The notes under the pieces: model-generated
What the model was told of the DNA's origin: nothing
The model's input: the letters and a program-made list of their open reading frames with translations, nothing else
Database searches by the model: none
Program-made: the position numbers and the translations under genes
Shown here: in pieces, positions 41,173-62,681 of the stretch
Layout of the letters: the number at the start of each line of letters is the position of its first letter
How positions within the stretch are numbered: position 1 is the first letter of the stretch
From: Carpediemonas membranifera BICM
Lineage: Eukaryota; Protista; Fornicata
DNA: 64,000 nucleotides
Direction: 5' to 3'
Assembly: GCA_019828565.1 (NCBI GenBank)
Contig: JAHDYR010000012.1
Location: 1,054,001 to 1,118,000, forward strand

Positions 41173-42309
41173 TCAGTCGGCATGCTCGTCCACGAAACCA
41201 AGGGGTGCCCCGGCGACGAGCTCGTCGTCCTCGGCAAAACGCGCCACCATACGGCGACCATCGGCGTCTGTCAACGTCGCTACATCGTCCTCAACGGTGA
41301 GCAACTCTGGAATGAACCCAGTCGGGAGTTTGACTGGGTTGAAGGCATTGCGGTCGATGTCCATAGCCCCAGCGGCCCAGTGCGAGTAGAAGCCGGCCAC
41401 AGCTACCCCGACAGGCGTCACCAGGAACGCCTCGGTGGATGTCAGCAGGAACTGGCGCACGAGCCGGTCTTTGTGCCAGGGGGGCAGGCCTTGCTCGTAC
41501 GCGGCCACCACAGGGCAGAAGGGGAAGGTGAGGCGGGTCGGGGCATGAAGGACCATGGCCGGCATCCCAAGCAGCTGCCTGGCGTTGCACCCCACGCCGT
41601 ACAGGCCTCGAGCAGTCACCAAGACGGTGCATACCGCTCCGGTCTCCGGGAAGCACTGCCAGTGCACCGTAAGCACCGTCGGACACGGCAGCCGGGCGTA
41701 CTTCACAGCGGGTGTCGACGAGCCGCGGGGCCGTGCGAACAGTCTGCCCTGATAGAGGCGGCGGCAGGCGAGAGCATGCACGACAGTCTCGCCGTCCTTG
41801 GAGGCGACGCAGTGGGCAAAGAAGAGCTTCTTACAGAGGAACCAGAGGCACTTGTCGGTGCTGCTGTATGCATTGTCGTCGTCCTGCGCACCATCCAGGT
41901 CCGGGTTGGCCTCACCCCCCATCATGCAAGCCCACAGCGTGCCCTGGAGCAGCGTGTGCAGGGCGACCGGGAGCTCCTCGCCATCAGCGAGCTCGACATT
42001 CATGCTGAGCGGAGGGCCGCTGGTGAGGATGGAGTGGGCGCGGTCGAGGAGCAGCTGTGCGTTTGGCTCGAGAGGCGGGAGTTCTGCGAGCCTCGCGAGG
42101 AGCTTATCGGCCGTAGCCCCAGTTGTGGCTTCATATGCTTCAGTATGATCGTGTAGCGAGGGCATCTCCTCGCGGAACTGCCTGTGGAAGGCGCCAGCGA
42201 TCAACGACGGCACGTCTCCGGGGACATCCGCCGTGGCGATCGTCGCAAGACGATGGAGACCTGCTAGAGCGTCTTTGAGCTCGGTTGCACCAGTGCTGGT
42301 CGCTGCCAT
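41173..42309 (-). CDS. RCC1-like repeat family protein, paralog A
   Basis: N-terminal ~125 aa identical to paralog B; LWFLCKKLFF, LVTARGLYGVGCNARQLLG. Confidence 0.65.
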   Translation of the reverse strand: MAATSTGATELKDALAGLHRLATIATADVPGDVPSLIAGAFHRQFREEMPSLHDHTEAYEATTGATADKLLARLAELPPLEPNAQLLLDRAHSILTSGPPLSMNVELADGEELPVALHTLLQGTLWACMMGGEANPDLDGAQDDDNAYSSTDKCLWFLCKKLFFAHCVASKDGETVVHALACRRLYQGRLFARPRGSSTPAVKYARLPCPTVLTVHWQCFPETGAVCTVLVTARGLYGVGCNARQLLGMPAMVLHAPTRLTFPFCPVVAAYEQGLPPWHKDRLVRQFLLTSTEAFLVTPVGVAVAGFYSHWAAGAMDIDRNAFNPVKLPTGFIPELLTVEDDVATLTDADGRRMVARFAEDDELVAGAPLGFVDEHAD

Positions 42310-42492
42310 TTCGCTTGGCACCACTGCAATCAGCTTGTGTTGTTGGTGCCATCGCGAGAGTCGACCCCAAGTCACAGCGAGGGTGTGGCGTGCAGCACAT
42401 GCATGTAGCCCCAGCACCACGACACTTCATTCGCGGTCCTCATTTCCCCGCAAGAGCTGAGTCTGCTGGGTCTGGTAAGGGGCGAGCTGCGG
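41930..42492 (-). repeat. 563-bp inverted duplication, arm 1
   Basis: Reverse complement of 46298-46860; I saw only one mismatch, near the gene-internal end. Confidence 0.9.
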
Positions 42493-46297: not shown

Positions 46298-46860
46298 CCG
46301 CAGCTCGCCCCTTACCAGACCCAGCAGACTCAGCTCTTGCGGGGAAATGAGGACCGCGAATGAAGTGTCGTGGTGCTGGGGCTACATGCATGTGCTGCAC
46401 GCCACACCCTCGCTGTGACTTGGGGTCGACTCTCGCGATGGCACCAACAACACAAGCTGATTGCAGTGGTGCCAAGCGAAATGGCAGCGACCAGCACTGG
46501 TGCAACCGAGCTCAAAGACGCTCTAGCAGGTCTCCATCGTCTTGCGACGATCGCCACGGCGGATGTCCCCGGAGACGTGCCGTCGTTGATCGCTGGCGCC
46601 TTCCACAGGCAGTTCCGCGAGGAGATGCCCTCGCTACACGATCATACTGAAGCATATGAAGCCACAACTGGGGCTACGGCCGATAAGCTCCTCGCGAGGC
46701 TCGCAGAACTCCCGCCTCTCGAGCCAAACGCACAGCTGCTCCTCGACCGCGCCCACTCCATCCTCACCAGCGGCCCTCCGCTCAGCATGAATGTCGAGCT
46801 CGCTGATGGCGAGGAGCTCCCGGTCGCCCTGCACACGCTGCTCCAGGGCACGCTCTGGGC
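46298..46860 (+). repeat. 563-bp inverted duplication, arm 2
   Basis: Reverse complement of 41930-42492. Confidence 0.9.
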
Positions 46861-48088
46861 GATTGTTGGGCAGCAGACAGCGCCGGACACCCCCAGCCCG
46901 CTTTGGTTCCTGTGCAAGAAGACGTTGTTCACCCACAGTGTTGCCACAAGGGATGCAGAGCACGTGACGATGACCCACTCCTTCGCACCGCCCACGTTCT
47001 TCATGACATACGCGGGCCGACTCCTGGCATGCGGCGGTAACGGGGCGGGATACACTGGCCTGGTCGACCGTCGCTCTGCTGTCCCAGAGTTCGGTCGTGT
47101 CTCCGTCCCCCCCGTCATTGCGCTCCACACATCCCACACAAGTTGCCTCGCACTCACGGCAAGGGGTCTGTTCGGCTGGGGTGAGAACACGGACGGCGAG
47201 CTCGGCCTGGGTGATCGCCGGAATACACCCCCGACCAGGGTGGCATTCCCCCATGCGCCTGCAGTCTGCAGGGTTGAACGGGCCCTCCCGGTCTGGCACG
47301 GGGACAGGCTCTCGACCCGCGTGCTGATGGGTACGCAGTTCTGGGGCTGGGCGATTATCTCTACTCCGGGCGGGGTGGTCGCTGCCGGCATTCTCCCAGA
47401 GAAACTCCGGAGGCCAGGGGCCCCAAGGTCCGTCTTCACGCCTGTCATCGGGATGCCGTCCGGGGTGCGACCCAGCTCATTTGTCGAGACCAGAGACTTC
47501 CTCCTCCTCATGGACTCGGAGGCAGGTCGTGCTCTGTGGTGCGGTGCCGATACCGCGGGGCGACTGGGCGGTGATGGGGGTCAGATGGGGCTGACAGACG
47601 CGCCCGTGGTCCCAGATCATGTCTGGGTGTCCAACAACTCTATAGTCCTAGCCCAGGGCCGGCAGCTGGTGTGGACGGGGGAACCCGGCCCCCTCCCCCG
47701 CGTGCTCTCAGACCCAGCCGACCCGCCCCATATAACTCTCCCTGCTGACGTAACCGCAGTTTACCTCTCAACCTCGATGTGGTGCTTTGTCCGCAGTCGT
47801 GGAGTCGACCTGTGGAGTCATGAAGTCGGGACGGACAATGTCCAGCAGTGGTCCAGTCCAGCCGCCCTCGTAGAGATCAGGTCTGACGTCGACTCGCACT
47901 GGATATGTTTGAACGGGGTGTGGCATGGTGTCGGGTCCAACTTCCGGGGCCGGCTGGGGGTCCGGGTCGACGCAGACTTCGTCTATTCGCCCACTCCTGT
48001 TATTAAGATCCCACCGGTGCTAGATATGTTACTAGGTGCAGCTGTTGATCGACAGCGCTTCTCGGGACACTGGTACATGCTCACGTAA
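46481..48088 (+). CDS. RCC1-like repeat family protein, paralog B
   Basis: GRLLACGGNGAGYTG, ALTARGLFGWGENTDGELGLG and GVWHGVGSNFRGRLG are RCC1-type repeats. Confidence 0.75.
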   Translation: MAATSTGATELKDALAGLHRLATIATADVPGDVPSLIAGAFHRQFREEMPSLHDHTEAYEATTGATADKLLARLAELPPLEPNAQLLLDRAHSILTSGPPLSMNVELADGEELPVALHTLLQGTLWAIVGQQTAPDTPSPLWFLCKKTLFTHSVATRDAEHVTMTHSFAPPTFFMTYAGRLLACGGNGAGYTGLVDRRSAVPEFGRVSVPPVIALHTSHTSCLALTARGLFGWGENTDGELGLGDRRNTPPTRVAFPHAPAVCRVERALPVWHGDRLSTRVLMGTQFWGWAIISTPGGVVAAGILPEKLRRPGAPRSVFTPVIGMPSGVRPSSFVETRDFLLLMDSEAGRALWCGADTAGRLGGDGGQMGLTDAPVVPDHVWVSNNSIVLAQGRQLVWTGEPGPLPRVLSDPADPPHITLPADVTAVYLSTSMWCFVRSRGVDLWSHEVGTDNVQQWSSPAALVEIRSDVDSHWICLNGVWHGVGSNFRGRLGVRVDADFVYSPTPVIKIPPVLDMLLGAAVDRQRFSGHWYMLT

Positions 48089-50904: not shown

Positions 50905-51444
50905 ATGGAAACTGCGACTAAGCAAAGACATAGCGTTCTGATCGGCTATGGCTCCTCTACGGGACAAGCTGCGGATTGTGCCGATATTGTGGCTGATTCG
51001 ATCGCTGCCGACGGCTACAAGGCCGTGGTGCGTGAGCTCAACGATATTCCGCGGCACGAGCCATTCATTCGCCAGTTCAGTCTCTTTGTGATCATCATCT
51101 CATCCTCCGACGACACCGACGATCATGTTCCGTTCAACGCAGAGGTGTTCTGCCACTGGCTGCAGACCAGGCCCGATCTAGCCGGCGTGGACGTTGCGCT
51201 CTTCGGACTGGGCGACTCCAGCTACACCACGTTCAACGCTGCGGGCAACCTCCTCGAGGAACTCCTCCTGAACGCCGGGTGCCTCTTCGTCTGCCCGGTG
51301 GGCGTCGCCGACGATGAAGAGGGCTCTGTCTTCGAGCAGCTCGAACCATGGGTGGCAACTCTGACCCGCGCGGTGCGGATCATCGTCCCAGGGTCGCCCC
51401 CGGTCATCGCCCAGCTTCCCGGGTCCACCATGGACGTCGCATAA
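50905..51444 (+). CDS. Stand-alone flavodoxin domain (FMN-binding, diflavin-reductase type)
   Basis: IGYGSSTGQA, LFGLGDSSYTTFNAAG, GVADDEEG, LEPWV. Confidence 0.85.
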   Translation: METATKQRHSVLIGYGSSTGQAADCADIVADSIAADGYKAVVRELNDIPRHEPFIRQFSLFVIIISSSDDTDDHVPFNAEVFCHWLQTRPDLAGVDVALFGLGDSSYTTFNAAGNLLEELLLNAGCLFVCPVGVADDEEGSVFEQLEPWVATLTRAVRIIVPGSPPVIAQLPGSTMDVA

Positions 51445-51496: not shown

Positions 51497-52453
51497 TTAC
51501 TCAGGCTTGGCGGTGGCGCGGGCCTTCAGCTCGTCCCACTCGGCCTTGCTGATCCGCTTCCGCTTGGGCAGGTCCGCGGTCTCGATCATCTTGAGGTACG
51601 TCTCGTTGAACTGGAACTGGGGGCTCCGGTCGGCGTCGGCATAACGCATCTTAATGGCACCCTTGGGGCACGAGTGGTAGCAGGCGTAGCATCCCACGCA
51701 GCCGGGTCCACGCTCGGCGATGTGGGTGTCACCCATGCGCATGGCGCCCGTTGTGCAGGTTCTGACACACTTTCCGCACCCGATACAGCGAGAAGGGTCG
51801 ACAGTGACCTTGCTGAAGCCAAACTTCCCGCCCTTCTTGTCGTCAAAACCGACGGCAAGCATGAGCTTCGACGAAAGTGCGATCGATGGCGGCTTGACTG
51901 TCTCGCCAGCCGCCAGGCGCCGGACGAGCTCATCGGCATGTTGCTTGGGCGTTTCCAGGTCCTCCTTCGCTAATACCAGACCGCGGGTGCGAATGAGAGG
52001 CGGATAGTTGTGAGTTGACGCCCAAAAGCCATGATAAACAAACTTCCCACCGCGCTTGACCATGTGCTTGCCAGTGAGGCCGGCGCCCTCGGACGAGCTG
52101 GTCGCGGTGCAGAAGGTGAAGCAGAGATTGTCCTTGAAGTACTCGTCGAAGCGGGGCTGCTCAACGAACTCCCGGAGGCCGTGGATGAAGACGCCCATGG
52201 CGATGGCGGATCCGACGCCGACAACATCATACGAGTCGGCGGGGGCGATCTTCTTCAGACATTCTGCACGGGTGGCGGGTGTGCTGACGTTGAACTTGTC
52301 GACAACGTAGCCGGCAGCTTCTAGGGCAAGCTTGAAGCACTCGGCGTAGAATCTGCATGTCCCGGTGTAGCTGGCGTACAGAATGAGCGCGCGCTTGGAA
52401 CGCTGGTCCTGTTCGGTGCTCACGTGCTGCTGTTGCTCTTCCTCGCTGCTCAT
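51497..52453 (-). CDS. Flavodoxin-like + 2x[4Fe-4S] ferredoxin fusion (EFR1-like)
   Basis: ILYASYTGTC at the N-terminus; CIGCGKCVRTC and CVGCYACYHSCP cluster motifs. Confidence 0.85.
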   Translation of the reverse strand: MSSEEEQQQHVSTEQDQRSKRALILYASYTGTCRFYAECFKLALEAAGYVVDKFNVSTPATRAECLKKIAPADSYDVVGVGSAIAMGVFIHGLREFVEQPRFDEYFKDNLCFTFCTATSSSEGAGLTGKHMVKRGGKFVYHGFWASTHNYPPLIRTRGLVLAKEDLETPKQHADELVRRLAAGETVKPPSIALSSKLMLAVGFDDKKGGKFGFSKVTVDPSRCIGCGKCVRTCTTGAMRMGDTHIAERGPGCVGCYACYHSCPKGAIKMRYADADRSPQFQFNETYLKMIETADLPKRKRISKAEWDELKARATAKPE

Positions 52454-52530
52454 TGGAGGGCACAGGTGGTGTTTCACAAAAGTGCACATTGATTCAGAGA
52501 AGTCTGCTGTATACGATTGAGAGTTACTTT

Positions 52531-52562
52531 ACTGCTTGCACTGTGCACTCTATGATACTTCA
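52531..52562 (+). repeat. 32-bp direct repeat, left end of copy 1 (ACTGCTTGCACTGTGCACTCTATGATACTTCA)
   Basis: Identical to 54743-54774, 60416-60447 and 62630-62661. Confidence 0.95.
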
Positions 52563-53085
52563 TTACCCCTTCCCGCTCTCCCTTCCTTCTTCTTGAGAGT
52601 GATATTTCGATAGTCAGTCATCATCGTCGGGGGTCATCAATCAGTGCTTCTCCAGTCCTCTCGCCAAGCAACTAGCTTCCCACCTATCGTCTACCCCATC
52701 TTACTTCCATCCGCTCTCTTCTGCTTGTCGGATTTCGGGGTCTTGATCATGACGTCTTTGCAATCATCACCATGGCCTTCCATCGCACAGCTGGCTCTTC
52801 TATGCCGCTGCCTGAAGATAAAACACTTCAGTTCTTCTAATTCTCGCCATTATCACTGCATAGTCTCGTTCATTAAACGTCTGTCGTCTTTGATGTGTGT
52901 TGTTAACAAGTGATCGGTTCATTCACCGCAAAACGCAGAGCTTCGCATGACCAGCATCTATACGGTCAAGTTCTCCATATCCTCTCCGCATAACCGTAGA
53001 AACGTGATTCCTTTCATCGCGGACTTCTACGCCGGATTGGAGAAAATACGCCGCAGTTCGGCAGGCTGTCACCTCAATAGCCGAG

Positions 53086-54699
53086 ATGCCACTGTGGCAT
53101 GGCGAGTTCATCATCCGCCTCTGCACCGCCCTCATGGCAGCTCGTCAACAGTGCCCTCGCGAGTTCGACGTGTGGCTGGGCGAATATGCCACGAGCACCA
53201 AGCTGTGGCTCGTCAATGCCCTTGAAGGTTACTGCTGGCGCCTGGCGAAGATCATCACTCGGGTCGACACTGCCCTGACTCAGCGTGATCCAGACGTGCC
53301 CCGGGACGACATCACCCGGTTGCGCACCGAACAACGCGCTGTCAAGGCGATCGTTGATGAGCACCTTGCAAAGATCTCAACTCCGGGACGAGTCGACGAG
53401 GGCGTTCTACTCACGCTGCCCTGCGTCTGGCGGATCTCCGCGGCTCTGGGAGAGCTCACGGATATGGTTGCGGCATTCAACACCGCCCATCCACCTCTTC
53501 CGGGTGACAAGCCGCTGGCTGGCCCCAAGCTTGTTCCGCTTGTCCCGATGGCTCCGATCCGCCCCGGGTTCATGCACGTTCCCTGTTCTCTCAACGTGCT
53601 GAACCCGGCTTGGCTTGCCCCACTTGGGGTCGACCCGGAGCATCACACCACTGAGCGCATGACCCGAGAGCAGCTGGAGGCTCTTCCTCCGAACATCCGT
53701 CGGGTGCTGTCTGTCAAGACAGATGGGGTCGCCGTGGACCTCACGGTCCAAGTTGGTGCTCTGCCATACGTCAGCAGACGTGCCAGTGGCAACCCGACGA
53801 TGAAGCGAAAGGCTCGGGAGCGTCTGGGTGTGGATGACGCAGATGCTCGCCCCGCGCCAGACCCCGATGCCCACCTCATGGGTTTCGACCCGGGTGCTCG
53901 GGCTCTGGGTGGATTCTTCATCCGCCACCAAGATGGCACCACCAGCTCCGGTGTGGTCCCGAAGTGTGGGTACACCAAGACCCCCAGCTTCGCGTTCGAT
54001 ATGACTCCTGCGTCATTCAAAAGTACAAATCTAAATAGTCTACAAAACTCGATTAGGTTTGTGCTCCTCCACGAGCAGGAAATATTCGACGCTGGGATGG
54101 TCAAGAGCTTCCGCAGAGTGCGCCTGACGAACCACATCTTGCGTCAAAAGCACTTCCACAGAGCTGGGGAGCAGCTTGCTCGCACCCTAGGATGGACTCC
54201 TCGGCGACTCCCTCGCGGTATTGCTCCTCCCCGGGCAGCCCCCACCAGGCTGGTTGTCTTCTACGGAAGCGCTAGATTCAAGACGCCCCGTCGGGTGCAT
54301 CCATGCGCGCCGTATGGTCGCTTTGCAAAATCACTAGCACACATCATGAGAACTTTCAACATCACTGCTGAAGTGCGGATGACTAACGAGTTCCGAACCT
54401 CACTCGTCTGACCCTTCTGCCGCGCGAGGTTCCGTAGAACTCGCTACACGAGGCGCACGATGCGATGCCACAACCCGAATTGTCAAGGTGCTCCATGGTA
54501 CAGACAGCAACGCCTCAATTCCGATCCTACTACATCCACTTGGCTCAATCTCTCCCACAGAGACAAGACTGCTGCACAGAACATCTTGGATTGCGGCCTC
54601 ATGACGGATGCACAGTATAACAAGCCAGTGCTTTCAGAAATCCAGCCCGTCTTCCCAACTATAACCCCAATACACCAATTACGGCTAACCAGCCGCTAG
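53086..54699 (+). pseudogene. Fanzor-like nuclease with a nonsense mutation
   Basis: TGA at 54409-54411 replaces the TGC (first Zn-finger Cys) of copy 2 and removes the Zn finger and RuvC-III; the downstream frame is still intact. Confidence 0.85.
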
Positions 54700-54794
54700 T
54701 CTTCGCCTCCGGGCAAGCTAATTAATTGAAGTGGAGAGACGCACTGCTTGCACTGTGCACTCTATGATACTTCATTCAGAGAGAGATTCGACGT
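54682..54794 (+). ncRNA. Putative omegaRNA 3' scaffold plus flank-derived guide, copy 1
   Basis: Hairpins at the element right end, which is the position expected for TnpB/Fanzor omegaRNA; boundaries are inferred. Confidence 0.45.
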
Positions 54795-59586: not shown

Positions 59587-60339
59587 TCACTCGACGAGCT
59601 CCATAATGTATATCTTGACTGTCCTGCGGATCTCGATGTCGCCGGGGTCCTCCTCGAACATGACGGGCATCCTCACCGGGTCCAGCTCGGTCACGGCAAA
59701 GCAGCACTCTCCGTTGGACACCACAGTACGGTCCACAGCAAGGTCGAAGAAAGCAAGGTCCTTGTGCTGAAGCCAGGGCCGATGGGACGAGAATGCCACC
59801 CGGACAACACCGCCAGGGGCAAGGCACTCGCGGCAGGTCCGCAGGAGAGCGCCGTGCTGCGAGTGGTTGAACAGCAGGTCAGAGAGGATTATGACGTCGA
59901 ACAGGCCATCCGCCAGCAGAGGCGCTGTGTCTGAGCCCCACGCAAAGCCGGCCACGTGAACGTCACAGGCAGTGTCCTTCGTGTTCCGGTTAATGTTGGT
60001 CTGCAGGCGCTCGATCAGCTCCTCGTCGGGGTAGTCTGTGGCGTACACCGCGGCAGCTCCGTTCAAGCAGGAGGCAATCGAGGCCAAGCCGGCGCCAGAA
60101 CCGAGTTCAAGGACGCGCTTGCCCCGGACGTCGATTATTCCCTCGTCCATCTGATTCAAGATGACGCGGGAGGCGTTCCACAGCACGTGGCCCCACAGAG
60201 AGTGCTCTGGGGCAAGATCCAACACAATTTTCTCCCCATTGCCCCTCTCAACCATAGTTTGGGACGCCGCTTTGCGTTCCTTAAAGTATCCGTCTGGTTC
60301 TTGGAATAAGTCCACGGCAATTTCCTCGGAATCGCTCAT
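59587..60339 (-). CDS. EFM7/NNT1-like protein methyltransferase (family 16)
   Basis: DLFQEPDGYF, HSLWGHVLWNA, VLELGSGAGL, TDYPD, SDLLFNHSQH, FSSHRPWL, MFEEDPGD. Confidence 0.9.
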   Translation of the reverse strand: MSDSEEIAVDLFQEPDGYFKERKAASQTMVERGNGEKIVLDLAPEHSLWGHVLWNASRVILNQMDEGIIDVRGKRVLELGSGAGLASIASCLNGAAAVYATDYPDEELIERLQTNINRNTKDTACDVHVAGFAWGSDTAPLLADGLFDVIILSDLLFNHSQHGALLRTCRECLAPGGVVRVAFSSHRPWLQHKDLAFFDLAVDRTVVSNGECCFAVTELDPVRMPVMFEEDPGDIEIRRTVKIYIMELVE

Positions 60340-60383
60340 TCGTTCGACGGAGACCGGTGTACTATTCTGCTCGCCGTCGCATT

Positions 60384-62661
60384 GAAGTCTGCTGTATGCG
60401 ATTGAGAGTTACTTTACTGCTTGCACTGTGCACTCTATGATACTTCATTACCCCTTCCCGCTCTCCCTTCCTTCTTCTTGAGAGTGATATTTCGATAGTC
60501 AGTCATCATCGTCGGGGGTCATCAATCAGTGCTTCTCCAGTCCTCTCGCCAAGCAACTAGCTTCCCACCTATCGTCTACCCCATCTTACTTCCATCCGCT
60601 CTCTTCTGCTTGTCGGATTTCGGGGTCTTGATCATGACGTCTTTGCAATCATCACCATGGCACCTTCCATCGCACAGCGGGCTCTTCTATGCCGCTGCCT
60701 GAAGATAAAACATTTCAGTTCTTCTAATTCTCGCCATTATCACTGCATAGTCTCGTTCATTAAACGTCTGTCGTCTTTGATGTGTGTTGTTAACAAGTGA
60801 ACGGTTCATTCACCGCAAAACGCAGAGCTTCGCATGACCAGCATCTATACGGTCAAGTTCTCCATATCCTCTCCGCATAACCGTAGAAACGTGATTCCTT
60901 TCATCGCGGACTTCTACGCCGGATTGGAGAAAATACGCCGCAGTTCGGCAGGCTGTCACCTCAATAGCCGAGATGCCACTGTGGCATGGCGAGTTCATCA
61001 TCCGCCTCTGCACCGCCCTCATGGCAGCTCGTCAACAGTGCCCTCGCGAGTTCGACGTGTGGCTGGGCGAATATGCCACGAGCACCAAGCTGTGGCTCGT
61101 CAATGCCCTTGAAGGTTACTGCTGGCGCCTGGCGAAGATCATCACTCGGGTCGACACTGCCCTGACTCAGCGTGATCCAGACGTGCCCCGGGACGACATC
61201 ACCCGGTTGCGCACCGAACAACGCGCTGTCAAGGCGATCGTTGATGAGCACCTTGCAAAGATCTCAACTCCGGGACGAGTCGACGAGGGCGTTCTACTCA
61301 CGCTGCCCTGCGTCTGGCGGATCTCCGCGGCTCTGGGAGAGCTCACGGATATGGTTGCGGCATTCAACACCGCCCATCCACCTCTTCCGGGTGACAAGCC
61401 GCTGGCTGGCCCCAAGCTTGTTCCGCTTGTCCCGATGGCTCCGATCCGCCCCGGGTTCATGCACGTTCCCTGTTCTCTCAACGTGCTGAACCCGGCTTGG
61501 CTTGCCCCACTTGGGGTCGACCCGGAGCATCACACCACTGAGCGCATGACCCGAGAGCAGCTGGAGGCTCTTCCTCCGAACATCCGTCGGGTGCTGTCTG
61601 TCAAGACAGATGGGGTCGCCGTGGACCTCACGGTCCAAGTTGGTGCTCTGCCATACGTCAGCAGACGTGCCAGTGGCAACCCGACGATGAAGCGAAAGGC
61701 TCGGGAGCGTCTGGGTGTGGATGACGCAGATGCTCGCCCCGCGCCAGACCCCGATGCCCACCTCATGGGTTTCGACCCGGGTGCTCGGGCTCTGGGTGGA
61801 TTCTTCATCCGCCACCCAGATGGCACCACCAGCTCCGGTGTGGTCCCGAAGTGTGGGTACACCAAGACCCCCAGCTTCGCGTTCGATATGACTCCTGCGT
61901 CATTCAAAAGTACAAATCTAAATAGTCTACAAAACTCGATTAGGTTTGTGCTCCTCCACGAGCAGGAAATATTCGACGCTGGGATGGTCAAGAGCTTCCG
62001 CAGAGTGCGCCTGACGAACCACATCTTGCGTCAAAAGCACTTCCACAGAGCTGGGGAGCAGCTTGCTCGCACCCTAGGATGGACTCCTCGGCGACTCCCT
62101 CGCGGTATTGCTCCTCCCCGGGCAGCCCCCACCAGGCTGGTTGTCTTCTACAGAAGCGCTAGATTCAAGACGCCCCGTCGGGTGCATCCATGCGCGCCGT
62201 ATGGTCGCTTTGCAAAATCACTAGCACACATCATGAGAACTTTCAACATCACTGCTGAAGTGCGGATGACTAACGAGTTCCGAACCTCACTCGTCTGCCC
62301 CTTCTGCCGCGCGAGGTTCCGTAGAACTCGCTACACGAGGCGCACGATGCGATGCCACAACCCGAATTGTCAAGGTGCTCCATGGTACAGACAGCAACGC
62401 CTCAATTCCGATCCTACTACATCCACTTGGCTCAATCTCTCCCATAGAGACAAGACTGCTGCACAGAACATCTTGGATTGCAGCCTCATGACGGATGCAC
62501 AGTATAACAAGCCAGTGCTTTCAGAAATCCAGCCCGTCTTCCCAACTATAACCCCAATACACCAATTACGGCTAACCAGCCGCTAGTCTTCGCCTCCGGG
62601 CAAGCTAATTAATTGAAGTGGAGAGACGCACTGCTTGCACTGTGCACTCTATGATACTTCA
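60384..62661 (+). mobile_element. Non-autonomous Fanzor/TnpB-carrying element, copy 2
   Basis: TSD CGCATT at 60378-60383 and 62662-62667; same termini and 32-bp end repeats as copy 1. Confidence 0.92.
60973..62586 (+). CDS. Fanzor (eukaryotic TnpB-family) RuvC nuclease, open frame
   Basis: SVKTDGVAV; RuvC-I HLMGFDPG (D268); RuvC-II TNEFRTS (E435); Zn finger CPFC...CHNPNC; RuvC-III HRDKTAAQNI (D493). Confidence 0.9.
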   Translation: MPLWHGEFIIRLCTALMAARQQCPREFDVWLGEYATSTKLWLVNALEGYCWRLAKIITRVDTALTQRDPDVPRDDITRLRTEQRAVKAIVDEHLAKISTPGRVDEGVLLTLPCVWRISAALGELTDMVAAFNTAHPPLPGDKPLAGPKLVPLVPMAPIRPGFMHVPCSLNVLNPAWLAPLGVDPEHHTTERMTREQLEALPPNIRRVLSVKTDGVAVDLTVQVGALPYVSRRASGNPTMKRKARERLGVDDADARPAPDPDAHLMGFDPGARALGGFFIRHPDGTTSSGVVPKCGYTKTPSFAFDMTPASFKSTNLNSLQNSIRFVLLHEQEIFDAGMVKSFRRVRLTNHILRQKHFHRAGEQLARTLGWTPRRLPRGIAPPRAAPTRLVVFYRSARFKTPRRVHPCAPYGRFAKSLAHIMRTFNITAEVRMTNEFRTSLVCPFCRARFRRTRYTRRTMRCHNPNCQGAPWYRQQRLNSDPTTSTWLNLSHRDKTAAQNILDCSLMTDAQYNKPVLSEIQPVFPTITPIHQLRLTSR

Positions 62662-62681
62662 CGCATTCGATCCGTTTATCC
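62569..62681 (+). ncRNA. Putative omegaRNA 3' scaffold plus flank-derived guide, copy 2
   Basis: CGGCT-AACC-AGCCG, TAG..GCC-TCCG-GGC..CTA and TGAAGT...ACTTCA stems are conserved between copies, followed by a variable flank. Confidence 0.45.

Follow-up and report, generated by a model that had tools for sequence, protein, structure and literature searches.

TRIM and non-autonomous LTR elements have direct terminal repeats, a TG that follows a purine tract, a CA terminus, a 4-6-bp target duplication and no mobility genes. In canonical LTR reverse transcription both repeats are made identical. According to the available part of a 2026 review, no retrotransposon is known to encode a Fanzor, and Fanzors are thought to be useful only to elements that excise (PMC13565253).

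Spu-1 (PMC10432273) and the unclassified Mucor elements MCi-2 and MCi-5 (PMC3627910) are about 2 kb long and have one Fanzor1 ORF, no transposase in cis and many copies, as does the element reported here. MCi-5 also shares with it 6-bp duplications and the lack of clear inverted repeats (PMC3627910). In contrast, Spu-1 ends in 30-nt inverted repeats with a fixed upstream CA (PMC10432273), the duplications of MCi-2 and MCi-5 follow fixed AT-rich patterns (PMC3627910), and the available portions of these papers give neither a terminal direct repeat nor a purine tract for any of the three.

In KolobokP (Kojima and Bao 2022), as described in the available part of that paper, an internal region with a His-Me nuclease lies between direct repeats, the element has its own transposase, and nuclease-driven recombination between the repeats is proposed (PMC9587614). 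The likeness is a nuclease-gene-bearing internal region between direct repeats. However, KolobokP has complete repeats of 450 or 660 bp, inverted repeats of 11-18 bp and RR...YY termini, its duplications are of the 3-5-bp TTAA/TATA type, and both transposase and His-Me nuclease are encoded by the element itself; repeats, inverted repeats, termini and duplications of these kinds are not found in our element. Replitrons, in the available portion of their description (PMC10288648), likewise have terminal direct repeats and a right-end hairpin, but their repeats are short (6 bp in Replitron-1), their duplications are variable or absent, their right ends are fuzzy and their transposase is of the HUH type. 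The absent or variable duplications and fuzzy ends of Replitrons and Helitrons are not seen here.

The window, that is, the whole 64,000-nt stretch of DNA from the free-living protist Carpediemonas membranifera that was analysed, contains a 2.3-kb non-autonomous element with a damaged Fanzor1-like gene. Like a TRIM, it repeats sequence directly at its two ends, has a TG beside a purine tract and a CA terminus, shows a duplication within the 4-6-bp range and lacks mobility genes of its own. It differs in that only 32 bp are common to units of 48-64 bp, a primer-binding site is missing, one end is without CA, and the 2.3-kb element carries an antisense Fanzor gene. It is LTR-like on the purine strand, yet it is not a member of the LTR/TRIM class in the standard sense.

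The Fanzor family is already matched by profile search, and no description of its carrier was found. One subfamily-2 protein, KAG9392881.1 (P0040), is listed as a Fanzor HMM match in Table S2 of PMC10711439, the main text of which mentions neither Carpediemonas nor direct repeats. Term searches found no mention of transposons in the text and 10 supplements of the genome paper (PMC8516963), and no Carpediemonas in the supplements of PMC10530073 or PMC10432273. A full-text search, with Repbase and subscription journals outside its scope, gave no paper on a Carpediemonas Fanzor or a Metamonada Fanzor transposon. Pattern scans found nothing in viral or metagenome contigs; a protein-based locus search gave 126 pattern matches in metagenome contigs and 41 in viral contigs, with 0 confirmed in either.

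Element copies and their ends

Two copies, A and B, are present.

52499..54774 (2,276 bp), plus strand: element copy A, ends GAAGT...ACTTCA, delimited by alignment with copy B and by the duplications
60384..62661 (2,278 bp), plus strand: element copy B, end layout as in copy A, with block X at 60416-60447 and 62630-62661 and the tract at 60451-60479
52493..52498 (left) and 54775..54780 (right): TTCAGA, the target-site duplication flanking copy A
60378..60383 (left) and 62662..62667 (right): CGCATT, the target-site duplication flanking copy B

The aligned copies are 99.5% identical and differ by 9 substitutions and one 2-bp indel. Boundaries were determined by shifting every start and end within one base and comparing the two copies. 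GAAGT...ACTTCA is the sole boundary pair that gives identical ends in both, and the duplications are then 6 bp in 2/2 copies. An earlier note on this locus had named TG...CA ends and duplications of 4-6 bp as hallmarks of elements with retroviral-type integrases. The duplications agree, at 6 bp in both copies with no obvious common motif; of the ends, CA is present on the right, whereas the left end is GAAGT and not TG. The ends are thus asymmetric (GAAGT left, ACTTCA right), and the terminal inverted repeat is only 5 bp (GAAGT/ACTTC). No longer terminal inverted pair occurs among the 25 longest of the 35 inverted pairs of at least 12 nt in the window.

Other boundaries were rejected. A 5-bp duplication with TG...CA ends fits copy B alone, and the first base would differ between copies; if the duplication is 6 bp, copy B owes its TG...CA appearance to the T at the last position of its duplication. 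Symmetric ends with a 7-bp duplication do not work in copy B. A 34-bp repeat is also rejected, as its additional TT is flanking sequence present in copy A only.

In contigs from four public runs, at least three more flanks start at the terminal CA or one base past it; of the two contigs at 60447, one probably comes from the same locus as the 62661 contig. Together with TTCAGA and CGCATT, two further readable flanks show no obvious common motif usable as a TAM. The middle of the element is uncovered by contigs in two of the public runs, which carries no evidential weight. In runs X3 and X4, contigs depart from the element sequence at 60868 and join it at 62286, the parts outside it being 45-50 unrelated letters; a further contig connects 62257 with 62582. 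These breaks and this join are signs of internally rearranged derivatives with the ends kept.

Terminal units and purine tract

Both copies begin with Z (32 left-only bases) and X, followed by TTA and a 29-nt tract; the internal region comes next, and 16 right-only bases and a second X close the element.

52499..52530, plus strand: left-only 32-bp terminal segment Z, which would be U5-like in an LTR reading
52531..52562, plus strand: inner copy of the 32-bp block X, exact match to 54743-54774
54727..54774, plus strand: right unit, 16 right-only bases and terminal X (54743-54774), ending in CA
52563..52594, minus strand: TTA spacer (52563-52565) and 29-nt tract, with 28 purines and ending GGTAA before TG; candidate plus-strand primer

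The left unit (52499-52562, 64 bp) and the right unit (54727-54774, 48 bp) have the extents first described for them. They share a perfect 32-bp block (52531-52562 and 54743-54774), exact in copy B as well, and are otherwise only partly identical: 32 of their 64 and 48 bp are common, and this is the same in both copies. Z differs between the copies by one A/G difference, at 52513. The X 32-mer has four matches in the window and 0 in 100 shuffles; the extra two belong to copy B. All four (4/4) sit in full copies, and there is no solo Z-X unit in the window. X begins at a TG exactly 3 nt past the purine tract and recurs at the extreme end of the element. TACTTT comes before the left X but not before the right one. 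Each unit had been described as bounded by GAAGT/ACTTC. The motif is there, but it is weak evidence for the inner boundary of the right unit because TGAAGT occurs 46 times over both strands of the window.

The second base of the right X, at 62631, is G in contigs of other copies and C in both window copies; C matches the left X. The C is a possible trace of template switching or conversion.

A 29-nt pyrimidine run had been reported at 52566-52594, inside the left unit. Its position and its distance of three bases from the unit are correct; it lies inward of the unit rather than inside it, and it is not pure (28/29, with G at 52575), the longest pure pyrimidine run being 19 nt. Read on the minus strand, it is a polypurine tract adjoining the 3' repeat, as had been proposed, with 28/29 purines placed 3 nt before TG; a similar junction is suggested for subfamilies 2 and 3 (below). 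Outside copies A and B, no 29-nt window on either strand of the 64-kb window has more than 25 pyrimidines. The tract was also considered as a generic host promoter feature. This was rejected, since 34 host 5' regions peak at 16/20 pyrimidines against 19 in the element tract. It could alternatively be a pyrimidine-rich leader for Fanzor transcription. The remark that no primer-binding site is visible holds: there is no TGG adjoining the right unit, and the first TGG is 36 nt inside. The window has 0 tRNA genes, and thus none for comparison with a primer-binding site.

The Fanzor1-like gene

52947..53045, plus strand: first 33 codons of the Fanzor gene in copy A, from tblastn of P0004, P0016, P0017 and P0018 against copy B
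53086..54699, plus strand: remaining part of the copy A Fanzor1-like gene, interrupted in frame by TGA at 54409-54411
60973..62586, plus strand: 537-aa Fanzor1-like ORF of copy B

The element carries a damaged Fanzor1-like gene, which belongs to a family with multiple copies in Carpediemonas membranifera. Compared with P0004, P0016, P0017 and P0018, both copies lack about 69 N-terminal codons after the first 33, with a change of frame. The in-frame TGA of copy A falls at the first zinc-finger cysteine. The copy B ORF has D268, E435, C442-C445/C461-C466 and D493, with E435 six residues ahead of the zinc finger; it also has a Gly-to-Arg change at a conserved YG. A RuvC D-E-D triad with the Glu six residues before a zinc finger is the Fanzor hallmark given in the available part of PMC13565253, and the copy B protein has both the triad and the zinc finger of Fanzor1.

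A profile (A3) made from 10 family members and 4 distant matches finds GtFz1 (5e-15), PpFz1 (2e-13) and SpuFz1 (4e-12), followed by Cas12f at 0.012. The three solved Fanzor1 proteins are thus its top matches, which makes Fanzor1 proteins the closest solved relatives. The window protein alone gives weak matches only, to Cas12f (E 0.14) and TNB. The fold model is poor (pLDDT 41); its top four structure matches are Fanzor1 (E 0.014-0.023), and both models are of low confidence.

All 13 other matches (13/13) in the first protein search are named Carpediemonas membranifera, as are 72 family gene models, many of which are fragments and so give no copy number. The count of 72 covers name-checked models; eight additional family models stand outside it. 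The family splits into three subfamilies with about 40-50% protein identity. No transposase is visible in the reading frames of the element, and no longer fused homolog (helper, transposase or RT) was found among 7,990 candidates, which is weak evidence. Among 15 candidates, no gene model other than P0059 itself has the P0059 N-terminus. At 54727-54729, the Fanzor frame of other copies ends ...ASGQAN (P0003, P0005, P0027, P0076, P0087); a 4-base gap in contigs of other copies moves the Fanzor stop onto the TGA that opens the right unit. P0053, a fragment of archaeal ribosomal protein L19 filed in the Fanzor cluster, looks like a database clustering error.

Layout in the sister subfamilies

The ends of the sister subfamilies were obtained not from DNA but by back-translating gene models that had been mis-called into the element ends. 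In subfamily 2, MCL[H/Y]CAT stands ahead of the Fanzor coding sequence in two models, P0059 and P0042, and trails it in P0011 and P0083; P0067 and P0082 have this DNA translated in a different frame. Both frames can be solved together over 12 codons; 100 shuffles gave 6 at most. Of 17 positions, the resulting block agrees with the start of X at 11, a level reached by 32/2472 control windows. Four right-end models part directly past ...GCAAC(A), so subfamily 2 likely has a CA terminus. The left block is followed by L-P-F-L-P-P, the sole all-pyrimidine-led 6-mer among 5634 distinct family 6-mers. A TGG just inside the right unit depends on one codon position that back-translation leaves ambiguous.

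In subfamily 3 the left junction was solved over 15 codons (maximum 9 in 40 shuffles). It reads ...ACA-YTACC followed by a C-rich tract and matches CA-TTACC of copies A and B. The right-hand block of this subfamily is represented by one 9-residue peptide common to P0069 and P0075, which diverge earlier than expected.

The protein models of the two sister subfamilies imply the same layout: each subfamily has its own block at both ends and a CA terminus, with YTACC and a pyrimidine-rich tract coming next; this is well shown for one of them. Within each subfamily, both copies of the repeat appear to change together, and the tract junction appears to be old and conserved across the three. The earlier note had named a non-conserved tract and copies without the left repeat as signs against its reading; neither is observed in what these protein models allow to be inferred. 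Its other idea, two miniature TIR units, loses support from subfamily 2, where the right unit has TGGAGG as its inner hexamer and this is not an inverted repeat of that subfamily's end. Translations of the end units of the window's own subfamily were sought among the family proteins, with 0 found at 17/18 or better.

Candidate 3'-end signal and predicted RNA folds

52528..52533, minus strand: AGTAAA over the Z/X border, candidate poly(A) signal
54606..54774, plus strand: candidate omega-RNA scaffold from a predicted fold, overlapping the gene end

The minus strand of the element has a single TAAA, which is also its single GTAAA, and this lies in the left unit (the 3' unit of the purine strand). 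The background of AGTAAA is 0.5% per 60 nt. Host 3' regions were taken as the 60 nt past the stop codons of 34 host genes, which were long ORFs picked by the author. TAAA occurs in 22/34 and GTAAA in 8/34 of these regions, against shuffle means of 6.4 and 1.7 (0/1000 shuffles); on the antisense strand the counts are 14 and 5 of 34. The Giardia poly(A) signal is AGURAA/WGURAA in the available part of PMC11529991. WGURAA is found in 4/34 host 3' regions, which is not significant (84/1000 shuffles as good). TAAA/GTAAA is a candidate poly(A) signal of Carpediemonas membranifera, an organism not named in the available part of PMC11529991. The purine-strand 3' unit thus has a candidate host-type 3'-end signal, judged by motif alone, and the solved block of subfamily 2 has TAAAC on the purine strand.

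On the Fanzor strand, the last 175 nt have a fold z of -2.58, with 1/200 shuffles as good. The predicted fold pairs 54606-54631 with 54741-54763, mostly the start of X (first 21 nt). Pairing of X with upstream sequence was rejected as proof of an omega-RNA stem: 837/2364 control windows pair as well. The z falls to -1.49 when the differences of other copies are inserted, and three ORF windows reach -2.8 to -4.3. The G at 62631 in other copies breaks a predicted pair, at the second base of X, and does not extend the stem. Subfamilies 1 and 2 have similar-looking 3' tails read in different frames. On the minus strand, the right unit forms a predicted hairpin (z -2.89, 0/200 shuffles) in a region picked after the fact; a hairpin in the left unit was rejected (z +1.3 and +1.1). 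The only Rfam match is a chance match at E 4.8.

Mobilisation of the element

The earlier note had considered a tiny-LTR (TRIM-like) retroelement. Membership in the standard sense does not stand, as both young copies keep an identical set of non-identical units. The element is not a standard TRIM because the units differ alike in two young copies, there is no primer-binding site and one end is without CA. Our preferred reading, a tentative one, is an LTR-like element without a primer-binding site that is copied through a minus-strand RNA, with reverse transcriptase and integrase supplied in trans by a helper.

In this mechanism the RNA would start in the right X, run antisense to Fanzor and end just past AGTAAA in the left unit. 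Plus-strand DNA would be primed at the purine tract, start at TG and copy X. A template switch in X would then rebuild the opposite end; such a switch would explain why X starts at the tract-adjacent TG, why it is exact, why it appears to change in step and why the remainders of the units differ. Lacking a primer-binding site, the element would obtain its left-only 32 bp from strong-stop DNA of the helper or from priming at the RNA 3' end. Integrase would make the 6-bp duplication. Fanzor and the predicted omega-RNA would be read from the other strand, via X into the flank. The literature consulted describes no element with a template switch and a helper-derived left segment; these two steps are the author's construction.

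Among the readings considered, RNA copying alone accounts for the start of X, the concerted change, the tract and the 3'-end signal, and as a whole it is judged to fall a little below an even chance. RNA copying is favoured, and copying at the DNA level is almost as likely. More guardedly, we suggest a retro-mobilised family with half-LTR ends, in which a polypurine-primed 20-32-bp block would be rebuilt in each cycle with no primer-binding site, and an antisense Fanzor1 would have been carried through the split into three subfamilies. It would be the first retroelement to carry a Fanzor and a new form of parasitism on the LTR-type machine. If the element is RNA-copied with no obvious target motif, the nuclease would need another job, for example allele homing or cutting of solo units with a fixed guide. 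Even under a DNA reading, the combination of a partial direct repeat at the termini with hardly any inverted repeat is undescribed for a Fanzor transposon in the literature searched.

The DNA-level alternative is a composite-like cut-and-paste transposon with KolobokP-type logic, in which a DDE transposase acting in trans would recognise GAAGT and ACTTCA as the outer ends and produce the 6-bp duplications. Unequal crossing-over or re-integration of circles would keep the inner X identical, and the tract would be a Fanzor leader or promoter. We give this somewhat less weight than RNA copying. It has precedent: every Fanzor carrier with evidence is a DNA transposon in the available portions of PMC13565253 and PMC3627910, and the available part of the KolobokP paper combines terminal direct repeats with a nuclease (PMC9587614). 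DNA-level copying also explains the same non-identical units in both copies and the missing primer-binding site, and excision gives Fanzor a role in restorative homing. However, a 5-bp, asymmetric terminal inverted repeat is below the ~10 bp usual for DDE ends, and the KolobokP repeats are complete, at 450-660 bp (PMC9587614). Neither a purine tract with a GGTAR-TG junction in three subfamilies nor a 3'-end signal on the purine strand is required by the model, and the two duplications and two further flanks have no obvious TAM motif.

The missing TAM motif in the flanks is explained if Fanzor homed into a solo unit. Here a 64-bp Z+X unit would have made the 6-bp duplication, X would be the fixed guide and the T-rich end of Z the TAM; the Fanzor module would cut solo units and be copied in by recombination, giving Z-X-module-X. 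This also explains the Z-X...X layout, the exactness of X and the lack of a primer-binding site. It agrees with the TACTTT that precedes the left X and not the right one, and with the finding that 1/9 of the inter-copy substitutions lies in Z (about 12% by chance, by the author's estimate). It is nevertheless improbable: the element's own left unit would still be targeted, the first 21 nt of X pair upstream in the predicted fold (though not beyond chance), the window holds no solo unit (4/4 X matches in full copies), and conservation of the tract is unexplained. Less probable still is HUH (Replitron/Helitron-like) or target-primed copying, with the direct repeat or a 3' hairpin marking the ends. 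Replitrons have terminal direct repeats and sometimes target duplications, in the available portion of PMC10288648, Helitron-borne Fanzors of Chlamydomonas have duplications according to that of PMC3627910, and the right unit has the minus-strand hairpin noted above (z -2.89, 0/200), a post hoc choice. Replitron and Helitron duplications vary in length, though, and the ends are fuzzy or truncated, whereas here the duplication is 6 bp twice and the right ends coincide at the junctions shown; the Replitron-1 repeat, moreover, is 6 bp and terminal at both ends.

Genomic surroundings

Copies A and B have the same orientation and lie about 40 bp upstream of a likely minus-strand host start codon (52453-52498 and 60339-60383); the flank of copy A has an alternative host ATG at 52489. 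Host intergenic spaces are short, and two insertions prove little. Beside copy A, a flavodoxin gene (50905-51444) faces 51497-52489, the product of which has a weak flavodoxin-like match fused to 4Fe-4S ferredoxin domains. Elsewhere in the window there is a 563-bp inverted duplication (41930-42492 and 46298-46860; 99.8% identical), which spans the 5' parts of host ORFs 41173-42420 (minus strand) and 46370-48088 (plus strand; RCC1-like Pfam matches).
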